DNA of 64,000 nucleotides from Emticicia agri (GCA_945860265.1 CAMAQF010000008.1:3810-67809); one strand, 5' to 3'. Counted from the stretch's first letter, positions 10,576 to 32,859 are shown. A program made the numbers and translations. Notes: generated from the sequence alone by a model not told the origin.

Positions 10576-11358
10576 TTATTTTCCTTTAAAATTAGTTTTG
10601 CGTTTTTGCAAAAAAGCCATTATACCTTCCGCAAAATCGTGGGTTTTACCTAGAATTTCTTGATTTTCTGATTCTTGCTCTAAAATATCATCAACCGTGC
10701 TATTATATGACTGATTCAAAACTTTTTTCATTAATCCAATCGACTTTGTTGCGGCTGTTTTATAGTATTCCGTTAGTTCGTTTATAGCTTCATCGAGTGC
10801 TTCGTAAGGGACTATTTTTGTAACTAAACCTATATTTAGTGCTTCTTCCATATAGACTTTTCGGCCAGTGCTACATAATTCAAACGCTTTTTGCATACCT
10901 ACAATTCGAGGCAAAAAGTACATCGAACCTGCATCGGGCATTAGTCCAATTCCTACAAAAAGTTCGCTCATATAGGCATCGTTATTGGCAATAATCATAT
11001 CACAAGCCAAGGCTAGCGACATCCCCGCTCCTGCTGCTATCCCATTCATGCGGCAGATGATTGGCTTTTCGGCATTTCGAATGGCACGAATCATCGGATT
11101 ATAGTTTTTGCGAAGCGAATCTCCCAACGATGCCATGCCTTCGTCCATACCGGCCTTTAAATCAGCTCCCGAACAAAAAGCTTTATCACCTACACCCGTA
11201 ATAACAATAACTCTAACCGATGAATCATTGGAAGATACTTCCACAGCTTTCGTTATTTCATTGATTAGGGCAGTACTAAGGGCATTATATACTTGTGGAC
11301 GATTGAGTGTAATGGTAGAAACACCATCAAATATTTCTAAGATTATATTTTCATACAT
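10576..11358 (-). CDS. Enoyl-CoA hydratase/isomerase (crotonase) family protein
   Basis: 260 aa. ITLNRPQVYNAL, FCSGADLK and GIAAGAGMSLALACD are crotonase oxyanion-hole signatures. Confidence 0.85.
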   Translation of the reverse strand: MYENIILEIFDGVSTITLNRPQVYNALSTALINEITKAVEVSSNDSSVRVIVITGVGDKAFCSGADLKAGMDEGMASLGDSLRKNYNPMIRAIRNAEKPIICRMNGIAAGAGMSLALACDMIIANNDAYMSELFVGIGLMPDAGSMYFLPRIVGMQKAFELCSTGRKVYMEEALNIGLVTKIVPYEALDEAINELTEYYKTAATKSIGLMKKVLNQSYNSTVDDILEQESENQEILGKTHDFAEGIMAFLQKRKTNFKGK

Positions 11359-11486
11359 AAGTAACTATCAATTATTTGGTTTTGATATATTAAAATTTAA
11401 GAAGTATATATACAAATATACAGCAAATAAGCATAATAATTTGGGTTGGAAAGTGTCTAAAAAAAACATTTTCATTTAAAATTTCT

Positions 11487-11514
11487 TTGATTTGCTTCCG
11501 AAACTCTATATTTG
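11487..11514 (+). promoter_or_regulatory. Candidate Bacteroidota-type promoter for kup
   Basis: TTG (11487-11489), 17-nt spacer, then TATATTTG (11507-11514), matching the TTG-N17-23-TAnnTTTG consensus. Lies 33 nt upstream of the kup start. Confidence 0.35.
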
Positions 11515-11546
11515 CAGACTTTTTTTACAAATAATCAAAAATTGAA

Positions 11547-13670
11547 GTGAGTCTAACTGGAAATGAGCAAGGTAATGGCAACCACGGTAATGGCCATCAC
11601 CACCATAATCTCGACAAAGTATCTGCTGCTGGACTGTTAATTGCCATGGGAATTATCTATGGTGATATTGGCACTTCACCTTTATATGTTCTAAAAGCTA
11701 TTGCAGGAACAGAAGTAATCAATGAAGCAATAATTTTGGGTGCACTATCATGTGTTTTTTGGACACTAACAATGCAAACAACACTCAAATACGTAATTCT
11801 GACTCTAAGAGCCGATAATCGTGGTGAAGGAGGAATTTTAGCTCTTTTTGCATTAGTTCGACGCCATGCCAGATGGCTAACTGTACCAGCAATCATTGGT
11901 GCCAGTGCATTACTTGCTGATGGCATCATTACCCCCCCGATTTCAGTAGCTTCGGCTATCGAAGGTTTACGCATAAAATTTCCTGATATTCAACAAGATA
12001 CAATCGTTAAAATCGTAATTGTGATCATATCAATTATATTTATCGTACAGATTTTTGGCACTAAAAAAGTAGGTTATTTATTTGGACCTTTTATGCTTGC
12101 ATGGTTTTCTATGCTTGCCGTGTTAGGTGTGGTTTGGATAGCCAAAGACTTTACGGTACTTAAAGCAATGAATCCTTATTATGCCTATGAATTATTAGTA
12201 AATCACCCTGGTGGATTTTGGATTTTAGGTTCTGTTTTTTTATGTACAACTGGGGCAGAAGCTCTCTACTCAGATTTAGGACATTGTGGTCGTGGCAATA
12301 TACGTATGAGTTGGGGGTTTGTAAAACTATGCTTATTGCTAAATTATTTTGGACAAGGGGTTTATGTAATGAGCCTGAATGGCCAAATGCTTGGCGATAG
12401 AAACCCATTTTATAACCTAATGCCTGAATGGTTTTTGCCATTTGGTATTTTCATCGCGACTTCAGCTGCCATTATTGCGAGCCAAGCCTTGATTAGTGGT
12501 TCGTTTACGCTTATTTCAGAAGCAATAAGATTAAATTTTTGGCCCAAAATAAAGGTCAATTATCCATCTGACCAAAAGGGACAAATTTATGTGCCGAGTA
12601 TCAATATTTTACTTTGGATTGGCTGTGTAAGCGTCACTTTATACTTTAGTAAAATTGCAGGTGAAATGACTGAAAAAAATATTGCCGATGCTTTGGCATT
12701 GAATAAAAACATTGATTTGGCTGTATTAAAAAAATCATCTGAAGTATTACTTTCAACGGCAATGGAAGCTGCTTATGGTTTAGCCATAACAATGACAATG
12801 CTTATGACAACTATGCTCATGGCATATTATTTATATGCTAAAAAATTCAACATTTGGGCAATAATATTGTTTATCTTAACCTACACTTGCATTGAAGGCT
12901 CATTTTTGATTGCAAATCTCCAAAAATTTCCGCACGGTGGTTATGTTTCTTTAATTATAGCTGGCATTATTGCCTTAGTAATGTATATTTGGATTCGAGC
13001 CTTTAAAATCAAAGCAAGATTGACAGAATACGAAAAACTGGACAAATATACTGAGTCCTTAAAAGAATTAAGTTCAGATATTACAGTTCCCAAATATGCT
13101 ACTCACCTAGTATTTTTGAGTAATGCAGGCCGTGCTTCGGAAATTGAAAACAAGATAATTTATTCCATTTTTCAGAAACGACCAAAACGTGCAGATGTCT
13201 ATTGGTTTGTGCATATTGATACCGTAGATGACCCTTATACAATGGAATATAAGGTCATGACAGTTGCCGATGACGATGTCTATAAAGTAAATTTCCGTTT
13301 GGGCTTTAGAGTGCCACAGAAGATAAATCTTTATTTCAGAAGAGTACTCGAAGACATGGTGAAAAATGGCGAAGTAGATATCCGTAGCCGTTATGAATCA
13401 TTGAACCGTCATAATGTAATCGGTGATTTTAAATTCGTTGTTCTCGAAAGATTCCTTTCTTATGAAAACGAACTGCCTTTCTGGGAAGGTCTAATTATGA
13501 GAGCTTACTTTTTTATCAAACAATATACACCTTCGGAAGACAAATGGTTTGGGCTTGACAGTAGTGCAGTGAAAGTCGAAAAAGTGCCGTTTATTATTAA
13601 AGCAATTGATAATATCAACCTAAAGCGTATTCCATGGGCAGGAAATGGAAATCCTATCGCAGGGCATTGA
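11547..13670 (+). CDS. kup: KUP/HAK/KT family potassium transporter
   Basis: IYGDIGTSPLYV, GGILALFAL, TGAEALYSDLGHCG and AAYGLAIT are canonical Kup motifs. GTG start. Has a His/Gly/Asn-rich N-terminal tail. Confidence 0.9.
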   Translation: MSLTGNEQGNGNHGNGHHHHNLDKVSAAGLLIAMGIIYGDIGTSPLYVLKAIAGTEVINEAIILGALSCVFWTLTMQTTLKYVILTLRADNRGEGGILALFALVRRHARWLTVPAIIGASALLADGIITPPISVASAIEGLRIKFPDIQQDTIVKIVIVIISIIFIVQIFGTKKVGYLFGPFMLAWFSMLAVLGVVWIAKDFTVLKAMNPYYAYELLVNHPGGFWILGSVFLCTTGAEALYSDLGHCGRGNIRMSWGFVKLCLLLNYFGQGVYVMSLNGQMLGDRNPFYNLMPEWFLPFGIFIATSAAIIASQALISGSFTLISEAIRLNFWPKIKVNYPSDQKGQIYVPSINILLWIGCVSVTLYFSKIAGEMTEKNIADALALNKNIDLAVLKKSSEVLLSTAMEAAYGLAITMTMLMTTMLMAYYLYAKKFNIWAIILFILTYTCIEGSFLIANLQKFPHGGYVSLIIAGIIALVMYIWIRAFKIKARLTEYEKLDKYTESLKELSSDITVPKYATHLVFLSNAGRASEIENKIIYSIFQKRPKRADVYWFVHIDTVDDPYTMEYKVMTVADDDVYKVNFRLGFRVPQKINLYFRRVLEDMVKNGEVDIRSRYESLNRHNVIGDFKFVVLERFLSYENELPFWEGLIMRAYFFIKQYTPSEDKWFGLDSSAVKVEKVPFIIKAIDNINLKRIPWAGNGNPIAGH

Positions 13671-23025: not shown

Positions 23026-25197
23026 TTGATATTGTATTTTAAAAAAATGGCATATTATTCATTGACAATGAAAAAACTTTTAAGAAAACTATATTTGAAT
23101 TCTGTTCGGGTCTTCTTGGTTTTTTATGTTTCATTTTTTCTTTTTTCAATTAGAGAAAACATTAATATAAATGATTGGCCAAGTTATAATGGTGGCGATA
23201 ATTGTAACCATTATTCCGCACTCACACAAATTAAACCCGAGAATGTTTCGACCTTGAAATTAGCTTGGATTTACAATTCAGGTGGAGCAGATACCATAAA
23301 AAATACTACTCAAATTCAATGTAATCCATTAATTATCAAAGGTATTTTTTATGGTGTTTCAGCCGGCTCACAAGCATTTGCTGTAAATGCTGAATCGGGT
23401 AAAGAAATATGGAAAACCAACTTGAAAGATAATACTTTCAGTATGACCAGCCGAGGTGTAAGCTATTGGACAGATGGACATGATGAAAGAATATTCTTTG
23501 GTTATGGAGCTTTTCTTTATGCCTTGAATGCCAAAAATGGTCATCCGATTTTATCGTTTGGTACGAAGGGGAAAATCCATCTAATTGACGGAATTAAACG
23601 CCCCGGTGCCGACGATTACGTAGTTTTGAACACGCCACCCGCAATCTATAAAAATACATTGATTGTAGGTATGAGAGTGGCGGAAAGTGCAACTGCTTTA
23701 CTCGGCGACATCAGGGCTTTTGATGCACGAACAGGAAAAAAAATTTGGACATTTCATACGATTCCACACCCCAATGAATTTGGTTACAAAACATGGGAGA
23801 AAGATAATTTTAAAAATTTAGGCGGAGCTAATAATTGGATGGGTATGGCTATCGACCAAAAACGGGGTATTATATATGCTCCAACTGGCTCGGCAGCGTT
23901 TGATTTTTATGGTGGTAATCGAAAAGGTGACAACCTTTTTGCCAATTGTTTACTGGCTCTAAATGCGAATACGGGCAAAAGGCTTTGGCATTTTCAGACG
24001 GTACATCACGACATTTGGGACAGGGATATTCCTGCACCACCAAACTTATTTACAATCTCAAAAAATGGAAAAAAAGTTGCTGTTGTGTCAGTATTGAGTA
24101 AACAAGGGTTCACTTTTGTGTTTGACCGAGTAAGTGGTAAACCTATTTTTCCTATCGAAGAGCGAGCGGTTATGGCTTCTACTATCAAAGGAGAGCAGGC
24201 ATCGCCTACGCAGCCGATTCCAGTTTTGCCTGAGCCATTTACTCGACAAAGCTTTACTGTTCATGATATAAATTCATTTGCATCAAACAAAGAACAAATA
24301 ATTGCACAAGTAAAGGAAGCTTCTACGGGTCAAGCTTTTATTCCATTAGGTAGAAATCGAACGGTTTTCTTTCCTGGAACTGATGGTGGAGCTCAATGGG
24401 GTGGTGCAGCAGTTGATGAAAACAGTATCATGTATGTTCCTGCTAAAGAAAACCCTGTGTACAGTTCATTAGTCGATGCACTTCCAACTAATAATAGCCA
24501 AGCCAATTCTTCGGGTAAAAAACTCTATCAAACACATTGTATGAATTGTCATGGAGTTAATCGGGAAGGCAACGAAGATGGAACATTTCCTTCACTCCAA
24601 AACATTGAAACAAAATATAATGAAACAGCGATACTACAAATCATATCAAAAGGCCGTGGGCTTATGCCTGCCCTAACACATATCAAAGCCGTAGAAAACA
24701 AAGCAATAATTCAATTTTTATTTGGCAAAGATAGCTACATAAAAACAGTTAATAAGTCGAATCTTTCGGAAAGTCCATATAAAAGTACAGGTTATAATCG
24801 TTGGTACGATTCGAACAATTACCCTATTAATACACCCCCTTGGGGAACTCTAACCGCCATCAATATGAACAATGGTAAGCGTATTTGGCAAATCCCGCTG
24901 GGAGAATATCCAGAACTTACAGCGAAGGGAATTCCTTTAACTGGCACTGATAATTATGGTGGACCAGCCGTTACGGCAGGAGGCCTACTATTCATTGCAG
25001 CTACAAAAGACCATCAATTTAGGGCAATTGACCGAAAAACAGGCAATATACTATGGAAAGTAATACTGCCAGCAGCAGGTTATGCTTCGCCAAGTGTTTA
25101 TGAAGTTGGTGGAAAGCAATATGTAGTGATTGCGTGTGGTGGTGGTAAATTAAAGACTAAATCAAGTGATAAATATCTGGCATTTACATTACCCTAA
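23026..25197 (+). CDS. Membrane-anchored PQQ-dependent dehydrogenase (glucose/quinate/shikimate type beta-propeller) with an inserted class I cytochrome c domain
   Basis: Propeller repeats (W-motif text such as GKEIWKTNL, TGKKIWTF, TGKRLWHF, NGKRIWQIPL, TGNILWKV). CMNCH heme-binding motif at 24538-24552 with a downstream GLMPA Met ligand. Propeller sequence resumes after the insert. The start may be the internal ATG at 23068 (MKKLLRK). Confidence 0.75.
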   Translation: MILYFKKMAYYSLTMKKLLRKLYLNSVRVFLVFYVSFFLFSIRENININDWPSYNGGDNCNHYSALTQIKPENVSTLKLAWIYNSGGADTIKNTTQIQCNPLIIKGIFYGVSAGSQAFAVNAESGKEIWKTNLKDNTFSMTSRGVSYWTDGHDERIFFGYGAFLYALNAKNGHPILSFGTKGKIHLIDGIKRPGADDYVVLNTPPAIYKNTLIVGMRVAESATALLGDIRAFDARTGKKIWTFHTIPHPNEFGYKTWEKDNFKNLGGANNWMGMAIDQKRGIIYAPTGSAAFDFYGGNRKGDNLFANCLLALNANTGKRLWHFQTVHHDIWDRDIPAPPNLFTISKNGKKVAVVSVLSKQGFTFVFDRVSGKPIFPIEERAVMASTIKGEQASPTQPIPVLPEPFTRQSFTVHDINSFASNKEQIIAQVKEASTGQAFIPLGRNRTVFFPGTDGGAQWGGAAVDENSIMYVPAKENPVYSSLVDALPTNNSQANSSGKKLYQTHCMNCHGVNREGNEDGTFPSLQNIETKYNETAILQIISKGRGLMPALTHIKAVENKAIIQFLFGKDSYIKTVNKSNLSESPYKSTGYNRWYDSNNYPINTPPWGTLTAINMNNGKRIWQIPLGEYPELTAKGIPLTGTDNYGGPAVTAGGLLFIAATKDHQFRAIDRKTGNILWKVILPAAGYASPSVYEVGGKQYVVIACGGGKLKTKSSDKYLAFTLP

Positions 25198-25932
25198 TCA
25201 AAACTCAAATTTTCCGTCTTTTTCAGTTTTTTTTATGATGCTAAAAATTTCTTTTTTGCCTTTCAGAGAAATCCTGCGAGAAACTTCAACTGCCGAGGTA
25301 AAGTAAGCGATTTTGGTAAAAAGCTCGCCCTGTCCAAAAAAGTCTTTTTGGGTGTTTAATTCAGTCAGCGGAATCGGAACGGGGCTCAGATAACTCAGCT
25401 CGGTTCGGTAATCAATATAGCGTTGTATAGAATCTTGACTACTTACAAAGCGATAATCAAGCATCAGAGCCAATCCTTCATCGAACCACGTTGGAATCTC
25501 TTTTTTGGTTTTCCACCAACCCAGTTTAGTCATAAGTTCGTCGTGGCACATTTCGTGGGCAATCACATCTGTATTTAGTCCATCTTGGTTTAAAATTATC
25601 CACGAACAAAGTGGTGTTCCGATACTAAAACCTGCACCTTCGGTGGTTTTGGCGTATTTTTGGTAAGTCATTGCGTTTTTGGTGAAAATAATTTTTGCTT
25701 GTCCGCTTTTACCTCCCCAAAAGGTTTTTATACGTTTTTCGGCATTTTCTACAAATTTTAATAATGAATCTTGCTGCATTTTCGATATCTTTTCTTCAAC
25801 AAAAATATTGGGTTTTATTTCTTGAAAACTATCATATTCAACAAAAAAGCACCATAAAAACTGCGGAAAAAGCCATGCAAATAGCAAACCAAATGCAATT
25901 ATTGTAAATATTGTTGATTTTAAAATTTTCAT
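25198..25932 (-). CDS. Hypothetical membrane-anchored HExxH protein (putative MA-clan metallopeptidase)
   Basis: N-terminal TM, HEMCHDE (HExxH) and a downstream WFDEGLA possible Glu ligand. No named family recognised. Confidence 0.5.
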   Translation of the reverse strand: MKILKSTIFTIIAFGLLFAWLFPQFLWCFFVEYDSFQEIKPNIFVEEKISKMQQDSLLKFVENAEKRIKTFWGGKSGQAKIIFTKNAMTYQKYAKTTEGAGFSIGTPLCSWIILNQDGLNTDVIAHEMCHDELMTKLGWWKTKKEIPTWFDEGLALMLDYRFVSSQDSIQRYIDYRTELSYLSPVPIPLTELNTQKDFFGQGELFTKIAYFTSAVEVSRRISLKGKKEIFSIIKKTEKDGKFEF

Positions 25933-26077: not shown

Positions 26078-26515
26078 ATGTACCCAATCATCCAACCAAT
26101 TCACTCATATTTAGCTTTTGCAGCACTTGCTTTGTTGGCAGCAGCTACTATCAACGGAATCATTGGCTCGACAAGCGAGAAAAGTTTTGAAGATAATCAT
26201 CTTAAAATCAACAAATTTGCTTTGATTGCTACGCATACAATGCTTATATTAGGTCTAATCTTATTGTTTGTTTCTCCAGGAGCTCAAGCAGCCTTTTCTA
26301 ATATGAAACTAACAATGAAGGATAGTATTTTGAGAAAAGCTTACATAGAACACCCTACAACAAATATAATAGCCGTTGTTTTAATTACAATCGGTAATGT
26401 TCGTGTAAAGCGTGCGGTTGGTAATGGTCGCAAATTTAAGCAAACTGCTATTTTCTTTGGTTTAGCGTTGATTTTAATTCTTAGCCGTATTCCTTGGTCA
26501 ACTTGGTTAGGTTGA
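26078..26515 (+). CDS. Hypothetical 4-TM membrane protein
   Basis: 145 aa with four hydrophobic spans and several His residues near the helix ends. Lies upstream of the ccmF-like gene. Confidence 0.45.
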   Translation: MYPIIQPIHSYLAFAALALLAAATINGIIGSTSEKSFEDNHLKINKFALIATHTMLILGLILLFVSPGAQAAFSNMKLTMKDSILRKAYIEHPTTNIIAVVLITIGNVRVKRAVGNGRKFKQTAIFFGLALILILSRIPWSTWLG

Positions 26516-26658: not shown

Positions 26659-29199
26659 ATGTTAAGACCATACCTTGGAAATATCGGACATATTTCTGTA
26701 ATTATCTCTTTTGTAGCTGCCATTGTTTCTACTTTTGCATACTGGCAGGCTACTCGACCAGAGGTTTTAAAAGATAAGCAAGCAACTGACCAATGGCTCA
26801 AATTTGCTCGTAGAGCATTTTATGTGCATACTTCGGCTATTTTTATTATTTGTGCTTCACTGTTGAGCATTATATTCAATCATTATTTTGAATACCATTA
26901 CGCTTGGGATAACTCTTCGTGGAGTTTGCCTATTGGATATGCCATTTCGTGTTTTTGGCAAGACCAAGAGGGTAGCTTTTTATTGTGGATGTTTTGGAAT
27001 GTTGTTTTGGGTGTTTTGTTAATAAATACTACGCTTCGCAAAACTCGTAATGTTGGAATCGAAGCTCCAACGATGACGATTTTCGCTTTGGTGCAGGTTT
27101 TCTTGGCTTCGATGATTTTGGGTGTAGTGATTTGGGGAGATTTCAAGGTTGGAAGTTCGCCGTTTTTGACTTTAAGAGAATCAATGCCGAATATTCCAAT
27201 TTGGAAAACAAACCCAAGTTTTGTACCTAAAGATGGTAATGGTCTGAATCCTTTACTGCAAAACTATTGGATGGTTATTCACCCTCCTACTCTGTTTTTG
27301 GGTTTTGCGATGACACTCGTTCCGTTTGCATTTTGTATGGCTGGCCTTTGGAAAAAACAATATACAGAATGGATAAAACCTGCATTACCTTGGACGTTGA
27401 CAGCGGCGGTTGTTCTTGGAACAGGAATTATGATGGGCGGAATTTGGGCGTACGAAACCCTCAACTTTGGTGGATATTGGAATTGGGATCCAGTAGAAAA
27501 TGCAGTTTATGTGCCATGGTTGGTTTTGGTTGGAAGTTTCCACACGATGCTTATGGCACGTAAAAATAGTACAGCTCTCAAATATACCATTATTTTGGTT
27601 ATCGCTCAATTTGTATTGATTGTTTACTCAACGTTTTTAGCTCGAAGCGGTATTCTTGGCAATGCGTCGGTTCACTCATTTACTGACTTGGGGCTTTCGG
27701 GGCAGTTATTGATTTATTTACTAACTTTTATCATTGTTTCGGTAGTACTTTCTACAATTCGCTGGAAACATTTACCACAAGATGAAGCAGAAATCTCGAC
27801 ATTTTCTCGTGAATTTTGGGTATTTTCTGGAGTTTTGATGCTTTGCTTGGCGAGTTTTCAAGTAATTGTTACGACTTCAATTCCTGTTTATAATAAAATA
27901 GGTGAGATTTTTGGAGCAAAACTAAACATGGCTTTGCCAACTAATCAAATCGAACACTTCACGCAGTTTCAGATGTGGTTTTTTGTGCTGATTACGTCTC
28001 TTTCCGGCGTTGCTCAGTTTTTTTGGTGGAAACGTGTTCAGAAAAATAGCTTAAACAAGCTAATTAATCCACTTGTAATCAGCCTTTTAGCATCAGCTAT
28101 AATCATAACTTTCGCTAAGGTAAATAACTGGAAATATATCATTTTATTGACCGCAGCGATGTTTAGTATTGCAGCCAATGGCAGTATTTTATTAGATATT
28201 CTGAAAGGAAAATTCAAAGTAGCTGGAGGTGCAATTACACACATTGGTTTGGCAGTGATGCTAATCGGAATCATGTTTTCTTCGGGCTACTCTAAAGTAG
28301 TTTCTTTGAATTTTTCAGGAGCAAAAATCTTTTCCAACGATAGTGATAACAAAGAAAATGCCTTATTATGGCTCAATCGACCGACTGAATTGAGTGAATT
28401 TTCGTTTACGTACAAAGGTCAGTTTGTTGATGTACGAAATGCACCGGGTTATATTGAGAAAAAATACGTTTGGCCTGTTCCTGGCAGTAATTACAAAGGT
28501 ATTGCACGTGCCGACGTAGTGGATGGCGATAAAACGTATTTCAAACGTGGTGATACGCTCGAGTATGAAGCCGAAAACACCTATTTCCAGATTGAATACT
28601 CAGATAAAAACGGAAAGAAATTTAACCTTTACCCACGAGTACAAGACAATGAAAAAATGGGAACGGTACTTTCACCCGATATTAAGAAATTTTGGAACAA
28701 AGATATTTATGCTTTCGTTTCCGGACCGCCAGTTGCCGAAGATGAGCGTGATTGGAGTCGCCCAGAAGAATTTGCAGTAGCGGTTGGTGATACTTTTTTT
28801 GTCAATGACTACGTAGCAATTCTTGAAAATGTAGAAGGAATCAGGGAAGTTGATGGAATGCAATTGGCCGAAGGCGATGCAGCCGCACGTGCAACGGTTA
28901 AAGTTCTGGATAGAAACGTAGCCATAACAATGCGTCCAGTTTTTGCAATTCGAAACCGTGAAGTTTGGAGCAAACCCGAAGTGAATAACGAAATGGGACT
29001 TCGCTTACAACTATCTAAAATCGACCCTGTTTCGGGCAAATTTGCCTTTACAGTAAGTCGAGGTCAGCGAGAGTTTCTCGTGCTAAAAGCGACTGAGAAG
29101 CCACATATTAACCTTCTTTGGATAGGATTCTTTATGATAATTGTGGGTATCACAATAGCAGCAGTTCGTCGTTTTCAACTTGTAGCTGCTCAAGGATAA
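26659..29199 (+). CDS. ccmF: Cytochrome c-type biogenesis protein, CcmF-like heme lyase (PF01578-type WWD domain plus CcmF_C-like region)
   Basis: WAYETLNFGGYWNWDPVENAVYVPWLV is the WWD heme-handling motif. About 15 TM spans, a CcmF-like N-terminus, a large periplasmic domain and a final TM (KPHINLLWIGFFMIIVG), as in CcmF. Confidence 0.7.
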   Translation: MLRPYLGNIGHISVIISFVAAIVSTFAYWQATRPEVLKDKQATDQWLKFARRAFYVHTSAIFIICASLLSIIFNHYFEYHYAWDNSSWSLPIGYAISCFWQDQEGSFLLWMFWNVVLGVLLINTTLRKTRNVGIEAPTMTIFALVQVFLASMILGVVIWGDFKVGSSPFLTLRESMPNIPIWKTNPSFVPKDGNGLNPLLQNYWMVIHPPTLFLGFAMTLVPFAFCMAGLWKKQYTEWIKPALPWTLTAAVVLGTGIMMGGIWAYETLNFGGYWNWDPVENAVYVPWLVLVGSFHTMLMARKNSTALKYTIILVIAQFVLIVYSTFLARSGILGNASVHSFTDLGLSGQLLIYLLTFIIVSVVLSTIRWKHLPQDEAEISTFSREFWVFSGVLMLCLASFQVIVTTSIPVYNKIGEIFGAKLNMALPTNQIEHFTQFQMWFFVLITSLSGVAQFFWWKRVQKNSLNKLINPLVISLLASAIIITFAKVNNWKYIILLTAAMFSIAANGSILLDILKGKFKVAGGAITHIGLAVMLIGIMFSSGYSKVVSLNFSGAKIFSNDSDNKENALLWLNRPTELSEFSFTYKGQFVDVRNAPGYIEKKYVWPVPGSNYKGIARADVVDGDKTYFKRGDTLEYEAENTYFQIEYSDKNGKKFNLYPRVQDNEKMGTVLSPDIKKFWNKDIYAFVSGPPVAEDERDWSRPEEFAVAVGDTFFVNDYVAILENVEGIREVDGMQLAEGDAAARATVKVLDRNVAITMRPVFAIRNREVWSKPEVNNEMGLRLQLSKIDPVSGKFAFTVSRGQREFLVLKATEKPHINLLWIGFFMIIVGITIAAVRRFQLVAAQG

Positions 29200-29232
29200 G
29201 ATATTTATTAATTGTCATTAACATACTGATGC

Positions 29233-29273
29233 AAAAAAATCCCTTTTTGCTCTGTGCAAAAAGGGATTTTTTT
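29233..29273. terminator. Bidirectional terminator between ccmF-like gene and the HLHP-domain gene
   Basis: aaaaaa-atccctttttgc-tctgt-gcaaaaagggat-tttttt. Confidence 0.75.
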
Positions 29274-29361
29274 GTGTTTACTTTTCTACGAAATAGCTAA
29301 TAAATACTAAAATTTACACTTTTCTAAGATTCATTTTTATTTTAAAACAAAAAAATGAAGT

Positions 29362-30987
29362 TTAAATGACATTCGCATCAAAAACACCTGTCAGAATTTT
29401 CCCTTCACGCTTTATTTGCAACCAAACTCGGTAATGCCCAGGCTTGGGGAAGGCATAAGGAAATGTAACTTGGCCGCTATGGTGTCCATCGTTTTCGTGT
29501 TTCATATTTCCCATCAATAATTTATCACGTTCGGCCTCGGTCATGGTCTGAAGTTTTGCCAAAATATTATCAACACTATCTCTGAATTGCTTTCCATTAT
29601 TCATGTTAGGGCGTTTATTACTTGTCTCGTCGATTCGTTTTTGCAAAACCTGCACAGCCGTTGACGAATATGTGCCATTGGGGTGCAAATGAATATACAC
29701 ACTTGCATCATCTTTAATAACGGCAACGTGACCCATCATGCCCAAATAAGTTTGCAATTCAGCAGGTTTTCCGTCAGGAGCAAGCACTGAAAATTCTAAA
29801 TCATAAACTTTGCCAGCTATTAATTTTTGATTGGGTTTTTCTTCCCAAACAATGCTTGAGCCATCTTGCAGCTTGGTTTTTACGCCTGCTGTTCCACAAA
29901 TCGTCATGCCTGAATTTTCTTGAAGTTTATACTCAACACCAAGACCATTAGTTATAACAAAAGTATCGTCTGAGTCTCCCGTGAGCGTTGGTATTATATT
30001 TACTTTTGGTGTTTGTGGAATTTCCACGGTATCAGTTATCGTATTTTGTAAGCTATGATAACGCAATACATCAGCAAAAATCAAATATTTTCCTGCGGGC
30101 ATATCGGGCAACGGAGCTTCAAAAGTTAATGTATCTTTTCGAGAAGGATGCAAATGAGCAAATACTTCCATAGAGCCTACTTTTACCAAAAACATGTGCA
30201 TTAGCTTTCCGTGGTCAGGAATGATAAAACTCATCGAACGGCCTTTAACCGAAATAGAATCTATCTTGAAGTTCAATATTCGCTGTCCGTCTCTAAAATT
30301 AATACTTGAGGTTGCAGTATAGGGGCGATAGATATTCCGTTGATAATCAGCCGTTTCGGCATTCCACCACATATTTCCTCCAAATAGTAATAATCCACAA
30401 AACGAAGCCCCAATCGTTGAGCCAACAATGCGTCGTTTCTTAGTCGAATTGTTTTCACTTTCTCCTACTTTCAACAAACTATCGCCCGTACTTGCTCCAA
30501 TAATCGTAGTCATAATGCCTACTAAAAGCAAAGCCAAACCTGCCAAAATCCAACTCAATGAGCTAGGCAGTTGGCGTTGAGCGGTAGAAATTGCCGCAAT
30601 CGGAATCAACACTTCGCCCTTCCCTCTTGCTCCTTCAATGACTACTTTCACACTGGCCGCACCATTTTCCATAAGCCAAATTTTTCCTTCATATTTACCT
30701 TCTTCGATCATAACCCCTTCGTCGGAACGAGGCGAACCTTCATCGCCAGTCCAATAATAAATCGGACTCATCTTTACACTTTTTATGTCGTTTCCATCGA
30801 CCATCACCGACACTTTGGCAGTTCCCGGAATCACATCGGGTGGCTCAACATATACTTGAACGCTATAATTTCCGGCTTTTCCTTCATGCACAACGCCAGC
30901 ACTACCAATGTGAGCAAAAGCAGAAAAAGAGATAAAAAATATTGAAATTACTTTAAAGAAAGTATTTTTTGATTTTATAAAATTCAT
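29362..30987 (-). CDS. Uncharacterised secreted/2-TM protein with duplicated HLHP-motif domain and Met/His-rich loop (putative metal-binding)
   Basis: Signal peptide ending AFA|HIGS, then two internal TM helices. Two repeats follow: LMHMFLVKVGSMEVFAHLHPSR...PAGKYLIF and MMGHVAVIKDDASVYIHLHPNG...PGHYRVWL. The insert reads LLMGNMKHENDGHHSG. Confidence 0.5.
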   Translation of the reverse strand: MNFIKSKNTFFKVISIFFISFSAFAHIGSAGVVHEGKAGNYSVQVYVEPPDVIPGTAKVSVMVDGNDIKSVKMSPIYYWTGDEGSPRSDEGVMIEEGKYEGKIWLMENGAASVKVVIEGARGKGEVLIPIAAISTAQRQLPSSLSWILAGLALLLVGIMTTIIGASTGDSLLKVGESENNSTKKRRIVGSTIGASFCGLLLFGGNMWWNAETADYQRNIYRPYTATSSINFRDGQRILNFKIDSISVKGRSMSFIIPDHGKLMHMFLVKVGSMEVFAHLHPSRKDTLTFEAPLPDMPAGKYLIFADVLRYHSLQNTITDTVEIPQTPKVNIIPTLTGDSDDTFVITNGLGVEYKLQENSGMTICGTAGVKTKLQDGSSIVWEEKPNQKLIAGKVYDLEFSVLAPDGKPAELQTYLGMMGHVAVIKDDASVYIHLHPNGTYSSTAVQVLQKRIDETSNKRPNMNNGKQFRDSVDNILAKLQTMTEAERDKLLMGNMKHENDGHHSGQVTFPYAFPKPGHYRVWLQIKREGKILTGVFDANVI

Positions 30988-31015
30988 TTTTTGATTTTTA
31001 AAAATACATTGAAAA

Positions 31016-31074
31016 TTATCAGTGAAAAATATTCACTCATTCAGAACGGGCGGCGTTTCGCTTCACTCGTAGAC
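31016..31074 (-). repeat. Intercistronic dispersed repeat, copy 1 (CGCCGCCCGTT core)
   Basis: Minus-strand reading gagtgaagcgaaacgccgcccgttctgaatgagtgaatatttt aligns at about 32/42 positions with the element at 59640-59705. Confidence 0.6.
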
Positions 31075-32298
31075 TTACCTCTGCACCTGTTTCATCCAAT
31101 TTCCCCAAGCAAGACCGATGCGTGTCGATATAAAACTAAAAATAAATGAAAGCGAAATACCTATTAGCCATTCATTCAAAGATTTTTTAGTCCAAGGGCC
31201 AAACTTGAACCGATATTCCCACTCGGCATCATTCTGGAACGACCAAGAATTACTTCCAAAAAACCAATTTCGTGCAAGCGGTGATTCGAGTAAAAATGCA
31301 CCAAACGGATAATGCGTCAAGAATAAAATAAGCGTATATGCTCCCCCCAATATGAATGCTAATATCCAATCGTTTTTAGTCGAAAACTTATCTCTTAACC
31401 AATCAGTTACAAATGCTGGAATAAATAAAAGCATTGGAAAGCCGAGTGTTTGATAGGTACTGATTTTGTTATGAATAGGTCCCAAAAGAGGTTCAGCCGG
31501 CAAAAGTCTTAGCGTAGCATTAACAGCCCAGTGAAAAATCAAAAATATGACACATAGATAGGTAGTTCCCCATTTTTTGTTTGAAGCTCGACCGGCTGCA
31601 AACAAGATAAGTGGAAATGCTACACTGGCAACTTCATAAAACGATGGCTCGTGCATTTCCCAACGTCCCAAAGATTCAGAAAGGAATGTGAAAATAGAAG
31701 TGATTAGAAAAGCCGCCGTAAAAATAAACATCCATTGCAAACGGTTCGTGCGTTTAGTGTTTTCTTCGGCTGAAAGCGATGTTACGTTTTCACTACGATT
31801 CAAAAACGCCAAAACGGCTATCATTGCCCCCATTTGTACGCTCATCAAACCCAAAAGCAAAACTGCATGTGGTGGAGAAAGAATCTGCACATCCAGACCA
31901 TAGGTATTATGCCACCAATCATCAAACGGTGCAGAAGTAATAGAAGCGATTCCGCCCCAAATACAGAAAAGTCCACCCAGTGAACTATAAAAAACACCCC
32001 AAAACTTCACCATTTTGCCTTTTTCGAGTTGATTTCCCCAAAAAGAAGTTTTCAGAACTTGATATCCAGAAAAAATACCCGTGGCAGCCGCTCCAATATA
32101 AGTTACAACGTGCGGAGCAGAAAACAGGCCATCACGACCAATACTCATGTGCCAAGCAATGTCCCACAAGATGCCGAGAATCACGCACATTGATGCAAAC
32201 ACACTCACATACACATAGAGTGGAATAGCCAGTAAAAGTTTTGAAGAGGATGAAAATTCTTTTTCGCTTGTAATAGACTGATTAATAGCCGTTTCCAT
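31075..32298 (-). CDS. Uncharacterised polytopic membrane protein with duplicated D-x-x-W-H ... P-H motif
   Basis: 407 aa with about 10 or more hydrophobic spans. WDIAWHMSIGRDGLFSAPH and FDDWWHNTYGLDVQILSPPH are two copies of one motif. Confidence 0.5.
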   Translation of the reverse strand: METAINQSITSEKEFSSSSKLLLAIPLYVYVSVFASMCVILGILWDIAWHMSIGRDGLFSAPHVVTYIGAAATGIFSGYQVLKTSFWGNQLEKGKMVKFWGVFYSSLGGLFCIWGGIASITSAPFDDWWHNTYGLDVQILSPPHAVLLLGLMSVQMGAMIAVLAFLNRSENVTSLSAEENTKRTNRLQWMFIFTAAFLITSIFTFLSESLGRWEMHEPSFYEVASVAFPLILFAAGRASNKKWGTTYLCVIFLIFHWAVNATLRLLPAEPLLGPIHNKISTYQTLGFPMLLFIPAFVTDWLRDKFSTKNDWILAFILGGAYTLILFLTHYPFGAFLLESPLARNWFFGSNSWSFQNDAEWEYRFKFGPWTKKSLNEWLIGISLSFIFSFISTRIGLAWGNWMKQVQR

Positions 32299-32355: not shown

Positions 32356-32859
32356 TTAAAATAAACCTAATTGTGATTGATTAGGTAAACTTCCCTCGTG
32401 TCGAAGTAACCATTCTTTTCGCCAAAGATCGCCGCCGTAGCCCACCAAACTTCCATCAGAGCCAATGACTCGGTGGCAGGGCAAAATTATAGTCAACGGA
32501 TTATTACCATTGGCCGTACCAACTGCACGAATGGCTTTTTCGTTGCCAATTCTTCTTGAAAATTCAAGATACGAAATCGTTTTGCCGTAAGGAATAGTTT
32601 TGAGATATTCCCATACATTTCGTTGAAAATCAGTTCCTTGCGGCTGCATTGGCAAATCAAAATCTTTGAGTTTTCCTGCAAAATAAGCATCAAATTGTTT
32701 GATTGTCTCATCAATGATTGGCGAGTTTTCGGGCGTCTCTTCTAACTGACTACTTGGTTTCTTTTGAGCTTCTCGAAACAGCACATCCGTCAAGAAATCA
32801 TCATTTGCTACAATTTCTAATACGCCAATAGGAGAACTATAGTGTTTGATGTATTGCAT
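32356..32859 (-). CDS. ogt: Methylated-DNA--protein-cysteine methyltransferase
   Basis: PCHRVIGSDGSLVGYGG active-site motif and NVWEYLKTIPYGKTISY. Confidence 0.9.
   Translation of the reverse strand: MQYIKHYSSPIGVLEIVANDDFLTDVLFREAQKKPSSQLEETPENSPIIDETIKQFDAYFAGKLKDFDLPMQPQGTDFQRNVWEYLKTIPYGKTISYLEFSRRIGNEKAIRAVGTANGNNPLTIILPCHRVIGSDGSLVGYGGDLWRKEWLLRHEGSLPNQSQLGLF

Follow-up and report, generated by a model that had tools for sequence, protein, structure and literature searches.

A two-gene operon in Emticicia agri encoding a putative remote homologue of the PmoC/AmoC metal-binding core and a His-rich exported partner

What do two adjacent genes do when no family model recognises either product? 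This question is raised by a locus in a 64,000-nucleotide stretch of DNA from Emticicia agri (GCA_945860265.1 CAMAQF010000008.1:3810-67809), referred to here as the window. Two open reading frames (ORFs) on the minus strand, gene A (31075..32298) and gene B (29362..30987), lie 87 nt apart according to the ORF call and encode, respectively, a 407-residue polytopic inner-membrane protein with about ten transmembrane (TM) helices and a 541-residue exported, membrane-anchored, His-rich partner. Strand, sizes and spacing agree with an original prediction made for this DNA, which had described the pair as a periplasm-facing metal module matching no family. It is correct that neither protein reaches a Pfam or NCBIfam threshold, but protein A is detectable as a remote homologue of PmoC and AmoC, the C subunits of particulate methane monooxygenase (pMMO) and of ammonia monooxygenase (AMO).

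Protein A gave no Pfam or NCBIfam match at E<=1, and nothing relevant was found when it, or a narrow profile of 35 A sequences, was compared with the PDB sequences by phmmer and profile search. Its own family is large: 2,487 homologues were obtained at E<=1e-3 among the candidates scored, none of them with a Pfam domain and nearly all named 'hypothetical', and an exhaustive profile search yielded 2,240 clusters (50% identity) at E<=1e-3 and 1,212 at E<=1e-10. The family occurs in the phyla Bacteroidota, Acidobacteriota, and Gemmatimonadota, with named members in Thermoanaerobaculia and Bryobacteraceae (Acidobacteriota) and in Gemmatimonadota such as Roseisolibacter agri. Source labels attached to A homologues ('low affinity Fe/Cu permease', 'XapX-like', 'FtsH-binding integral membrane protein', 'YhdT') conflict with each other and, being mutually inconsistent, are therefore probably automatic mislabels.

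The sequence of A carries one motif in two copies. Motif 1, WDIAWHMSIGRDGLFSAPH (32110..32166, minus strand; residues 45-63), contains D46, H50, R55, D56, and H63, and motif 2, DDWWHNTYGLDVQILSPPH (31867..31923, minus strand; residues 126-144), contains D126, H130, D136, and H144. The conserved pattern reads W45-D46-x-x-W49-H50...R55-D56...P62-H63 for the first copy and D126-D127-W-W129-H130...D136...P143-H144 for the second, followed by H216, and the spacings in A are D46-x3-H50-x12-H63 and D126-x3-H130-x13-H144. The Asp, Trp, His, and Pro residues of the motifs are invariant in close homologues and are kept to at least 90% in representatives 24-49% identical to A, and conservation of the ligand positions holds in all three phyla. 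Comparison of TM1-2 with TM3-4 by hhalign supports an internal duplication (P=2.1e-5, probability 77%). The duplicated Asp/His motif had been recognised in the original prediction; both copies are present and their His and Asp residues are kept among homologues. It is very probable that these pairs of Asp and His bind a metal.

The AlphaFold2 model of A (predicted local distance difference test, pLDDT, 87; predicted TM score, pTM, 0.88) contains ten long helices, in keeping with the ten or more spans counted originally. The first four, TM1-4 (residues 24-167; 31798..32229, minus strand), make up a PmoC/AmoC-like core of duplicated helical hairpins, and the six further helices (residues 177-407; 31078..31770, minus strand) carry the conserved residues H216, P270, P274, P288, and D299. 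Segments rich in Lys and Arg are located after TM2 and around the TM4-TM5 junction, including the N-terminal part of the modelled helix 177-205. Since such segments mark the cytoplasmic side, loop charges and modelled helices together place the N-terminus of A inside; the motif loops (residues 53-60 and 134-141) and H216 are predicted to face the periplasm. In Foldseek searches, no match of the A model was significant, the best reaching E=0.17 in the PDB and E=0.29 in a viral library. Among the weak matches were 9leg_C and 9cl6_C, both chain C of ammonia monooxygenase (E=1.3-1.5, TM 0.15-0.20), and it was these, together with a match of the B model to the AmoB chain 9leg_B, that led to the comparison of A with PmoC/AmoC.

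The references for this comparison were PF04896 and the PDB entries 7S4H/7EV9, 9CL6, 9LEG, and 9PXF for PmoC/AmoC, PF04744 for PmoB/AmoB, and alignments of PmoC, PmoA, and PmoB made from fetched pmoCAB operons. In copper membrane monooxygenases (CuMMOs), the CuC site is formed by two His and one Asp and the CuD site by two His and one Asn, both in subunit C, and the two sites together are the probable active site (PMC13058606; PMC11725843). The PmoC fragment used was 100% identical to 7ev9_C 102-237 and 1yew_C 131-266, and this identity with solved chains fixes the PmoC ligands at D156/H160/H173 and N227/H231/H245. Motif 1 of A (D46/H50/H63) aligns with the CuC ligands D156/H160/H173 at the same x3/x12 spacing, and motif 2 (D126/H130/H144) is the positional equivalent of the CuD ligands N227/H231/H245 (x3/x13), with Asp in place of Asn.

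Already in a single BLASTP comparison of A with the PmoC fragment, the best local match fell on motif 1 (A 46-79, E=7e-4). The narrow A profile aligned with PmoC over only 20 columns (P=0.0026, probability 11%) and was insufficient before divergent representatives were added. When the profile was broadened to 64 sequences whose identity to A is 24-49%, hhalign gave an alignment of 86 columns running from motif 1 through motif 2 (P=5.5e-5, probability 66%, score 43.5), in which all six ligand positions are in register. The null scores were 15.7±2.4 (maximum 23.0) for 150 column shuffles and 13.8±1.9 (maximum 19.4) for 150 block shuffles, and the reversed A profile scored 11.6. The N-terminal region of A alone matched PmoC with P=8.3e-6 (probability 84%), and hairpin 1 alone matched the CuC hairpin with P=2.1e-7 (probability 94%).

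Database searches pointed to the same family. A hidden Markov model (HMM) of 61 diverse A members, run against 177,635 distinct PDB sequences, retrieved AmoC (9e-5, 1.1e-4, 2.6e-4) and PmoC (4.7e-3) and nothing else below E=1. PF04896 (AmoC) was matched by 17 of the 61 members, in all cases below threshold (best E=1.1e-3), and other Pfam families by at most 2 members each. In the reverse search, a PmoC HMM placed the window protein (A407) at the top of the 384 ORFs from all six frames of the window. The similarity is not confined to the ligands: the consensus of the family, WDISWHxSIGRDTFWTPpH, has the elements W-H, I-x-R-D, and T-P-x-H in common with AmoC (DASWHQVIIRDTSFTPSH) and PmoC.

An independent origin of a short metal-binding helix-loop-helix in an otherwise unrelated fold would also produce such a resemblance. 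Most of the statistical support comes from some 22-56 columns at hairpin 1, hairpin 2 taken by itself gives no significant match, Foldseek gives no significant global match, and A differs from PmoC in size, helix number, and partners, all of which would suit convergence. Against it stand the shared order of non-ligand residues (W at position -1 of the first His, the I-x-R-D loop, and F/W-T-P before the last His), the ungapped agreement of family consensus and PmoC at 10 of 19 positions, an alignment that spans four helices and keeps the order and spacing of the two sites, and the agreement of three independent profile sources (the pmoCAB-derived alignment, PF04896, and the PDB chains). We consider convergence very unlikely. 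Profile comparison thus identifies TM1-4 of A as a remote homologue of the PmoC/AmoC metal-binding core. A does not belong to PF04896 as this family is defined and, on sequence evidence, fits best into the PmoC/AmoC superfamily as a divergent variant that has a novel partner.

For residues 177-407 of A no relative was detected, and hhalign comparisons with PmoA, PmoB, and PmoC were not significant. The idea that this C-terminal half is a fused PmoA, in the order C-A-B, was rejected (P=0.019-0.056, probability below 3%).

Protein B, the partner, likewise had no Pfam or NCBIfam match at E<=1 and no PDB sequence match by phmmer. Of the candidates scored, 1,317 were homologues of B at E<=1e-3; they are without Pfam domains and nearly all 'hypothetical'. 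One of them (P0228) comes from a set of eukaryotic transcriptomes, and the bin that holds one A-B locus (L005) is labelled Cyanobium; both placements are likely to reflect contamination or mis-binning. The AlphaFold2 model of B (pLDDT 76, pTM 0.71) shows an N-terminal beta-sandwich, two TM helices, and two more beta-sandwiches, which, preceded by a signal peptide, is the layout originally proposed. The signal peptide (residues 1-25; 30913..30987, minus strand) is predicted to be cleaved between AFA and H, making His26 the predicted mature N-terminus, and the sequence A-H-[IV]-G across this site is invariant in the three phyla. The N-domain (residues 26-138; 30574..30912, minus strand) is followed by a TM hairpin (residues 142-218; 30334..30564, minus strand) with modelled helices 142-171 and 180-218. 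The turn between them, KKRR, is taken as cytoplasmic, and all three beta-domains are therefore predicted to be periplasmic. The predicted topologies of both proteins therefore put A's metal motifs on the same side of the membrane as the His-rich domains of B.

These His-rich domains are modelled as two beta-sandwiches, domain 2 (residues 223-330; 29998..30321, minus strand), with invariant D258-H259, H264, and H278-x-H280-P281, and domain 3 (residues 331-541; 29365..29997, minus strand), with invariant M417, H420, H433-x-H435-P436, and H503. Residues invariant across the three phyla include H26, H259, H264, H278, H280, M417, H420, H433, H435, P436, and H503. The two domains had been read as copies of one HLHP-type domain; the H..H..HxHP motifs are indeed invariant, but the likeness between domains 2 and 3 around the H...HxHP motif is statistically weak (P=0.006). 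Domain 3 also contains a helical Met/His insert (residues ~442-505; nt 29473-29664, minus strand), the insert of about 60 residues noted before, which exists but is specific to Cytophagales; distant orthologues lack it and have a short His-rich loop instead.

The fold of the N-domain points to copper proteins. By Foldseek it is a periplasmic beta-sandwich of the CrdA/YtkA (CopC-like) type, matching the copper-resistance protein CrdA of Helicobacter pylori (9ll2_A) with probability 1.00 and TMt 0.57 over 114 columns, and the same chain is the best PDB sequence match of B, on residues 71-119, at a non-significant E=0.47. Among 44 B orthologues, 2 had sub-threshold matches to YtkA (PF13115; 20.4 bits, cut-off 25.9) and 1 a below-threshold match to CopC (PF04234; E=0.16); the window B protein matched neither PF13115 nor PF04234. 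CrdA is a CopC/PcoC-like copper binder (PMC9182242), and YtkA/CtaK is a copper-trafficking domain also present in the YcnJ importer (PMC13344008). The mature N-terminal His had been compared with copper sites of the CopC type. It is invariant together with its surroundings, but residues 26-138 hold no second invariant His, and a CopC-type site is therefore not established there. The better parallel is with the architecture of PmoB and with a CrdA/YtkA-type domain.

Genes A and B almost always occur as a pair. In a set of 80 Cytophagales loci with an A homologue, B follows A directly on the same strand in 76. One exception is a contig that ends 522 nt past A, another a Spirosoma metagenome-assembled genome (MAG; L071, 6575-8159) with an integrase-carrying insertion where B would be, and in the remaining two other sequence follows A, in one case (L020, a Cytophagales MAG, 11192-12655) an unrelated gene for a 487-residue lipoprotein. 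In every distant locus inspected, the gene for an A protein about 27-38% identical to that of the window has directly downstream a gene of about 490-507 codons without any Pfam domain, and these downstream genes are B orthologues (B HMM, E 1e-114 to 1e-145); in several distant loci, the stop and start codons of A and B overlap by 4 nt. The co-occurrence of both genes in other genomes, one of the checks suggested earlier, thus extends from Cytophagales to Acidobacteriota and Gemmatimonadota.

No third gene is conserved: de novo clusters of neighbouring genes occurred in at most 24 of the 80 loci, and nothing was common to the loci in other phyla. The original prediction had argued from context, and the genes it named are present, a convergent CcmF-like gene and, about 4 kb away, a pyrroloquinoline quinone (PQQ) dehydrogenase bearing a CxxCH motif, but each is found in 1 of the 80 loci. 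Considered as a possible accessory module of cytochrome c maturation, A-B had no conserved linkage to ccmF/ccsBA or cytochrome genes in the 80 loci or in the distant phyla. As only the closest Emticicia relatives retain these neighbours (the closest locus, in an Emticicia MAG, has 91-98% protein identity across the neighbourhood), the argument from context fails, and we rejected a functional link of A-B with either the CcmF-like gene or the PQQ dehydrogenase. A-B is an autonomous, ancient two-gene operon in an incidental surrounding.

Because A is remotely homologous to PmoC/AmoC, whose CuC and CuD ligands line up with its two motifs, the leading hypothesis moves from metal chaperoning towards a CuMMO-like membrane metal centre. 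The periplasm-facing metal module proposed before holds in its main points, with conserved probable ligand residues on the predicted periplasmic side and copper as best candidate, and neither the conservation of the motifs nor the co-occurrence of the two genes refuted it, but generic chaperoning no longer leads. Our preferred reading, to which we assign a probability of about one half, is that A and B form a self-contained, co-translated two-subunit metalloprotein complex of the inner membrane that is a deeply divergent relative of pMMO and AMO. The metal would be copper. B may capture it in the periplasm through its Met/His loop, the YtkA/CopC-like domain, and the N-terminal His, and could pass copper and/or electrons to A, taking the place of PmoB in pMMO. 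A would hold one or two copper ions in a CuC/CuD-type site at the interface of membrane and periplasm, and its six extra helices might stand for PmoA as scaffold and substrate pocket. O2 activated by the copper in A would then oxidise a substrate that is small or lipid-soluble, quinol being a possible reductant, as debated for pMMO. The more specific proposal that A-B is a catalytically active 'minimal' copper membrane oxygenase, sister to pMMO/AMO but independent of PmoA and working through a CuC/CuD-type site, is put forward tentatively.

Several observations weigh against the preferred reading. On the side of A, Foldseek gave no significant global fold match between the model and AmoC, with the E and TM values stated above; hairpin 2, compared by itself, shows no similarity to the CuD hairpin (P=0.31) and has Asp as first ligand where PmoC has Asn; the scores of all A-family members stay below the gathering threshold of PF04896 (26.7 bits), and A407 has no PF04896 match even at E<=10. 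On the side of B, hhalign detected no sequence similarity to PmoB in any domain (P>=0.13 for the mature protein, the N-domain, domain 2, and domain 3; P=0.02 and probability 2.3% for the TM segment), and comparisons of B with PmoB, PmoA, and PmoC, whole and by domain, were also not significant with four orthologues from distant phyla added. The fold match of B to AmoB (9leg_B, E=3.5e-4) sits among many matches to generic immunoglobulin (Ig)-like proteins, and the HxH pairs of B (278/280 and 433/435) belong to the domains after the TM helices, whereas that of PmoB is in the N-terminal domain. In the genomes, no PmoA-like gene was present in 1.57 Mb around 88 related loci and in the window (0 matches at E<=1 for PmoA and PmoB HMMs, compared with 44 and 32 in control pmoCAB loci), no substrate-pathway genes were linked to A-B in the loci inspected, and the hosts are ordinary heterotrophs. 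The ligand set itself is also ambiguous, as Asp with two His also suits Fe(II) or Zn.

This last point opens the way to a different metal or a non-redox role, such as a 2-His-1-carboxylate Fe(II), Zn, or Ni site for hydrolysis, metal sensing, or transport, or a structural envelope complex. Non-heme Fe(II) and Zn are classically bound by Asp with two His, His-rich beta-sandwiches bind Zn or Ni as well, no result of the analysis names the metal, and one A homologue bears the label 'low affinity Fe/Cu permease', probably from automatic annotation. Every similarity signal nevertheless leads to copper proteins (AmoC/PmoC, CrdA, YtkA), and the Met-containing motifs of B (M263, M417, M492, M495) favour Cu(I), which makes these roles, in our view, quite unlikely.

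The same copper signals can be read in another way, with A-B as a device for copper acquisition or trafficking, a functional analogue of CopC-CopD or YcnJ-YcnI that performs no catalysis. B would bind periplasmic copper by way of its N-terminal His, the YtkA/CrdA-like domain, and the Met/His loops. The Asp/His/His sites of A would then be occupied transiently, moving copper across or into the membrane, for example for respiratory oxidases or other cuproenzymes. The N-domain of B resembles CrdA and YtkA, both copper-trafficking proteins, its Met/His-rich loops are typical for Cu(I) handling, and a stand-alone two-gene operon free of pathway genes suits a housekeeping role. YcnJ offers a precedent, in which a periplasmic copper domain and a His-bearing polytopic domain act as an importer (PMC13344008). 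On the other hand, the sole detectable relatives of A are PmoC and AmoC, whose equivalent sites are thought to be catalytic, and CopD (PF05425) is neither among the 25 most recurrent Pfam families of the 61 A members nor matched in individual scans of A407 and 10 divergent members. Two rigidly conserved three-ligand sites in A and at least eight invariant His in B exceed what is found in known copper importers, and no copper regulator or exporter is linked to A-B. We regard trafficking as somewhat unlikely, and a complex related to pMMO and AMO remains the preferred reading of the locus.

The flanks of the operon were also inspected. A hairpin at 29231..29275 (unstranded), found by terminator scan and sequence inspection, is a 20-bp perfect inverted repeat flanked by A/T runs, with the arms GCAAAAAAATCCCTTTTTGC...GCAAAAAGGGATTTTTTTGT, and lies between gene B and the convergent CcmF-like gene; its structure makes it a probable bidirectional intrinsic terminator for the A-B operon and that gene. 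A sigma-70 promoter scan, ill-suited to Bacteroidota promoters, gave counts not above those of shuffled sequence, and Rfam (gathering threshold) and tRNA scans of the whole 64-kb window (1-64000) found none. A gene for O6-methylguanine-DNA methyltransferase (32356-32859, minus strand) lies 57 nt 5' of A on the same strand, a linkage present in 4 of the 80 loci, and could be co-transcribed with A in this genome.

The CcmF-like gene (26659-29199, plus strand) encodes an 846-residue protein that combines Cytochrom_C_asm and CcmF_C matches and a weak ResB match in one polypeptide and scores far under the NCBIfam cut-offs for NrfE/CcmF; instead of a CcmF orphan, it may be a cytochrome c synthase of the fused, system-II type (CcsBA-like). 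The PQQ-type dehydrogenase (23026-25197, plus strand) has an internal CMNCH heme-c motif. A homologue 45% identical to it stands directly upstream of A-B in a Siphonobacter MAG (L018, 7789-9828), in 1 of the 80 loci, probably by coincidence, because such dehydrogenases are common. Between the two genes, 25198-25932 (minus strand) encodes a 244-residue secreted or membrane protein whose motif HEMCH is of the HExxH type and whose only matches, to peptidase M1/MA, are weak, and 26078-26515 (plus strand) a 145-residue four-helix membrane protein with a weak DUF2231-like match; both uncharacterised proteins are kept beside the CcmF-like gene in the closest Emticicia locus.

CuMMOs drive the oxidation of methane and ammonia. 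Their active site, in the CuC/CuD region of subunit C, is contested because the enzymes are fragile and the hosts slow-growing specialists. In the openly accessible literature searched, we found no prior description of PmoC/AmoC-like families outside canonical operons, and A-B is described in neither Pfam nor NCBIfam. Our findings suggest that A, encoded together with its partner, may represent a family that is sister to the active-site subunit of CuMMOs, widespread and so far unannotated. With CuC/CuD-like triads in a simpler two-gene system, in easily grown heterotrophs of three phyla, it would offer a comparative and experimental handle. Should A-B prove to be a minimal oxygenase, the disputed active site of CuMMOs would gain a tractable model, and abundant heterotrophs of soil and fresh water (Dyadobacter, Spirosoma, Runella, Emticicia, Roseisolibacter, and acidobacteria) would possess an oxidative activity that has gone unrecognised. 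If it is a trafficking device instead, its membrane core resembling PmoC would make it a device of a new type. Thousands of 'hypothetical' proteins would receive a first functional hypothesis.

Set beside known copper-handling systems, B is similar to CopC, CrdA, and YtkA in the CrdA-type fold of its N-domain and in an N-terminal His like that of CopC/YcnI-type Cu(II) sites, and the combination of a copper-domain-type B with a His-bearing polytopic A recalls YcnJ (CopC-CopD-YtkA). Unlike these systems, B has two further His-rich domains, the typical His/Asp arrangement of CopC is not established in its N-domain, and A has no detected profile similarity to CopD.

Set beside the CuMMOs, A is longer than PmoC/AmoC (407 residues and about 10 helices, compared with about 250-290 residues), lacks the N-terminal helices of PmoC and has six extra, unrelated ones, carries Asp at the CuD-equivalent position where PmoC has Asn, and scores below the Pfam threshold. 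The operon departs from canonical xmoCAB in having no pmoA or pmoB gene nearby and in its heterotrophic hosts among Bacteroidota, Acidobacteriota, and Gemmatimonadota. B shows no sequence or profile similarity to PmoB, has three periplasmic domains instead of two, and matches the PmoB-type fold no better than generic Ig-like proteins. Nevertheless, B shares with PmoB/AmoB a predicted succession of signal peptide, His as first mature residue, beta-sandwich, two TM helices, and beta-sandwich, and its gene, like that of PmoB, comes directly after that of the membrane subunit or subunits. A, in turn, has a four-helix membrane core in common with PmoC/AmoC, where triads of the form Asp/Asn-x3-His-x12/13-His, the second of them matched by position and spacing, stand at the ends of helices, come in the same order, and are separated by about 70-80 residues, together with the non-ligand elements W-H, I-x-R-D, and T-P-x-H around the first site.

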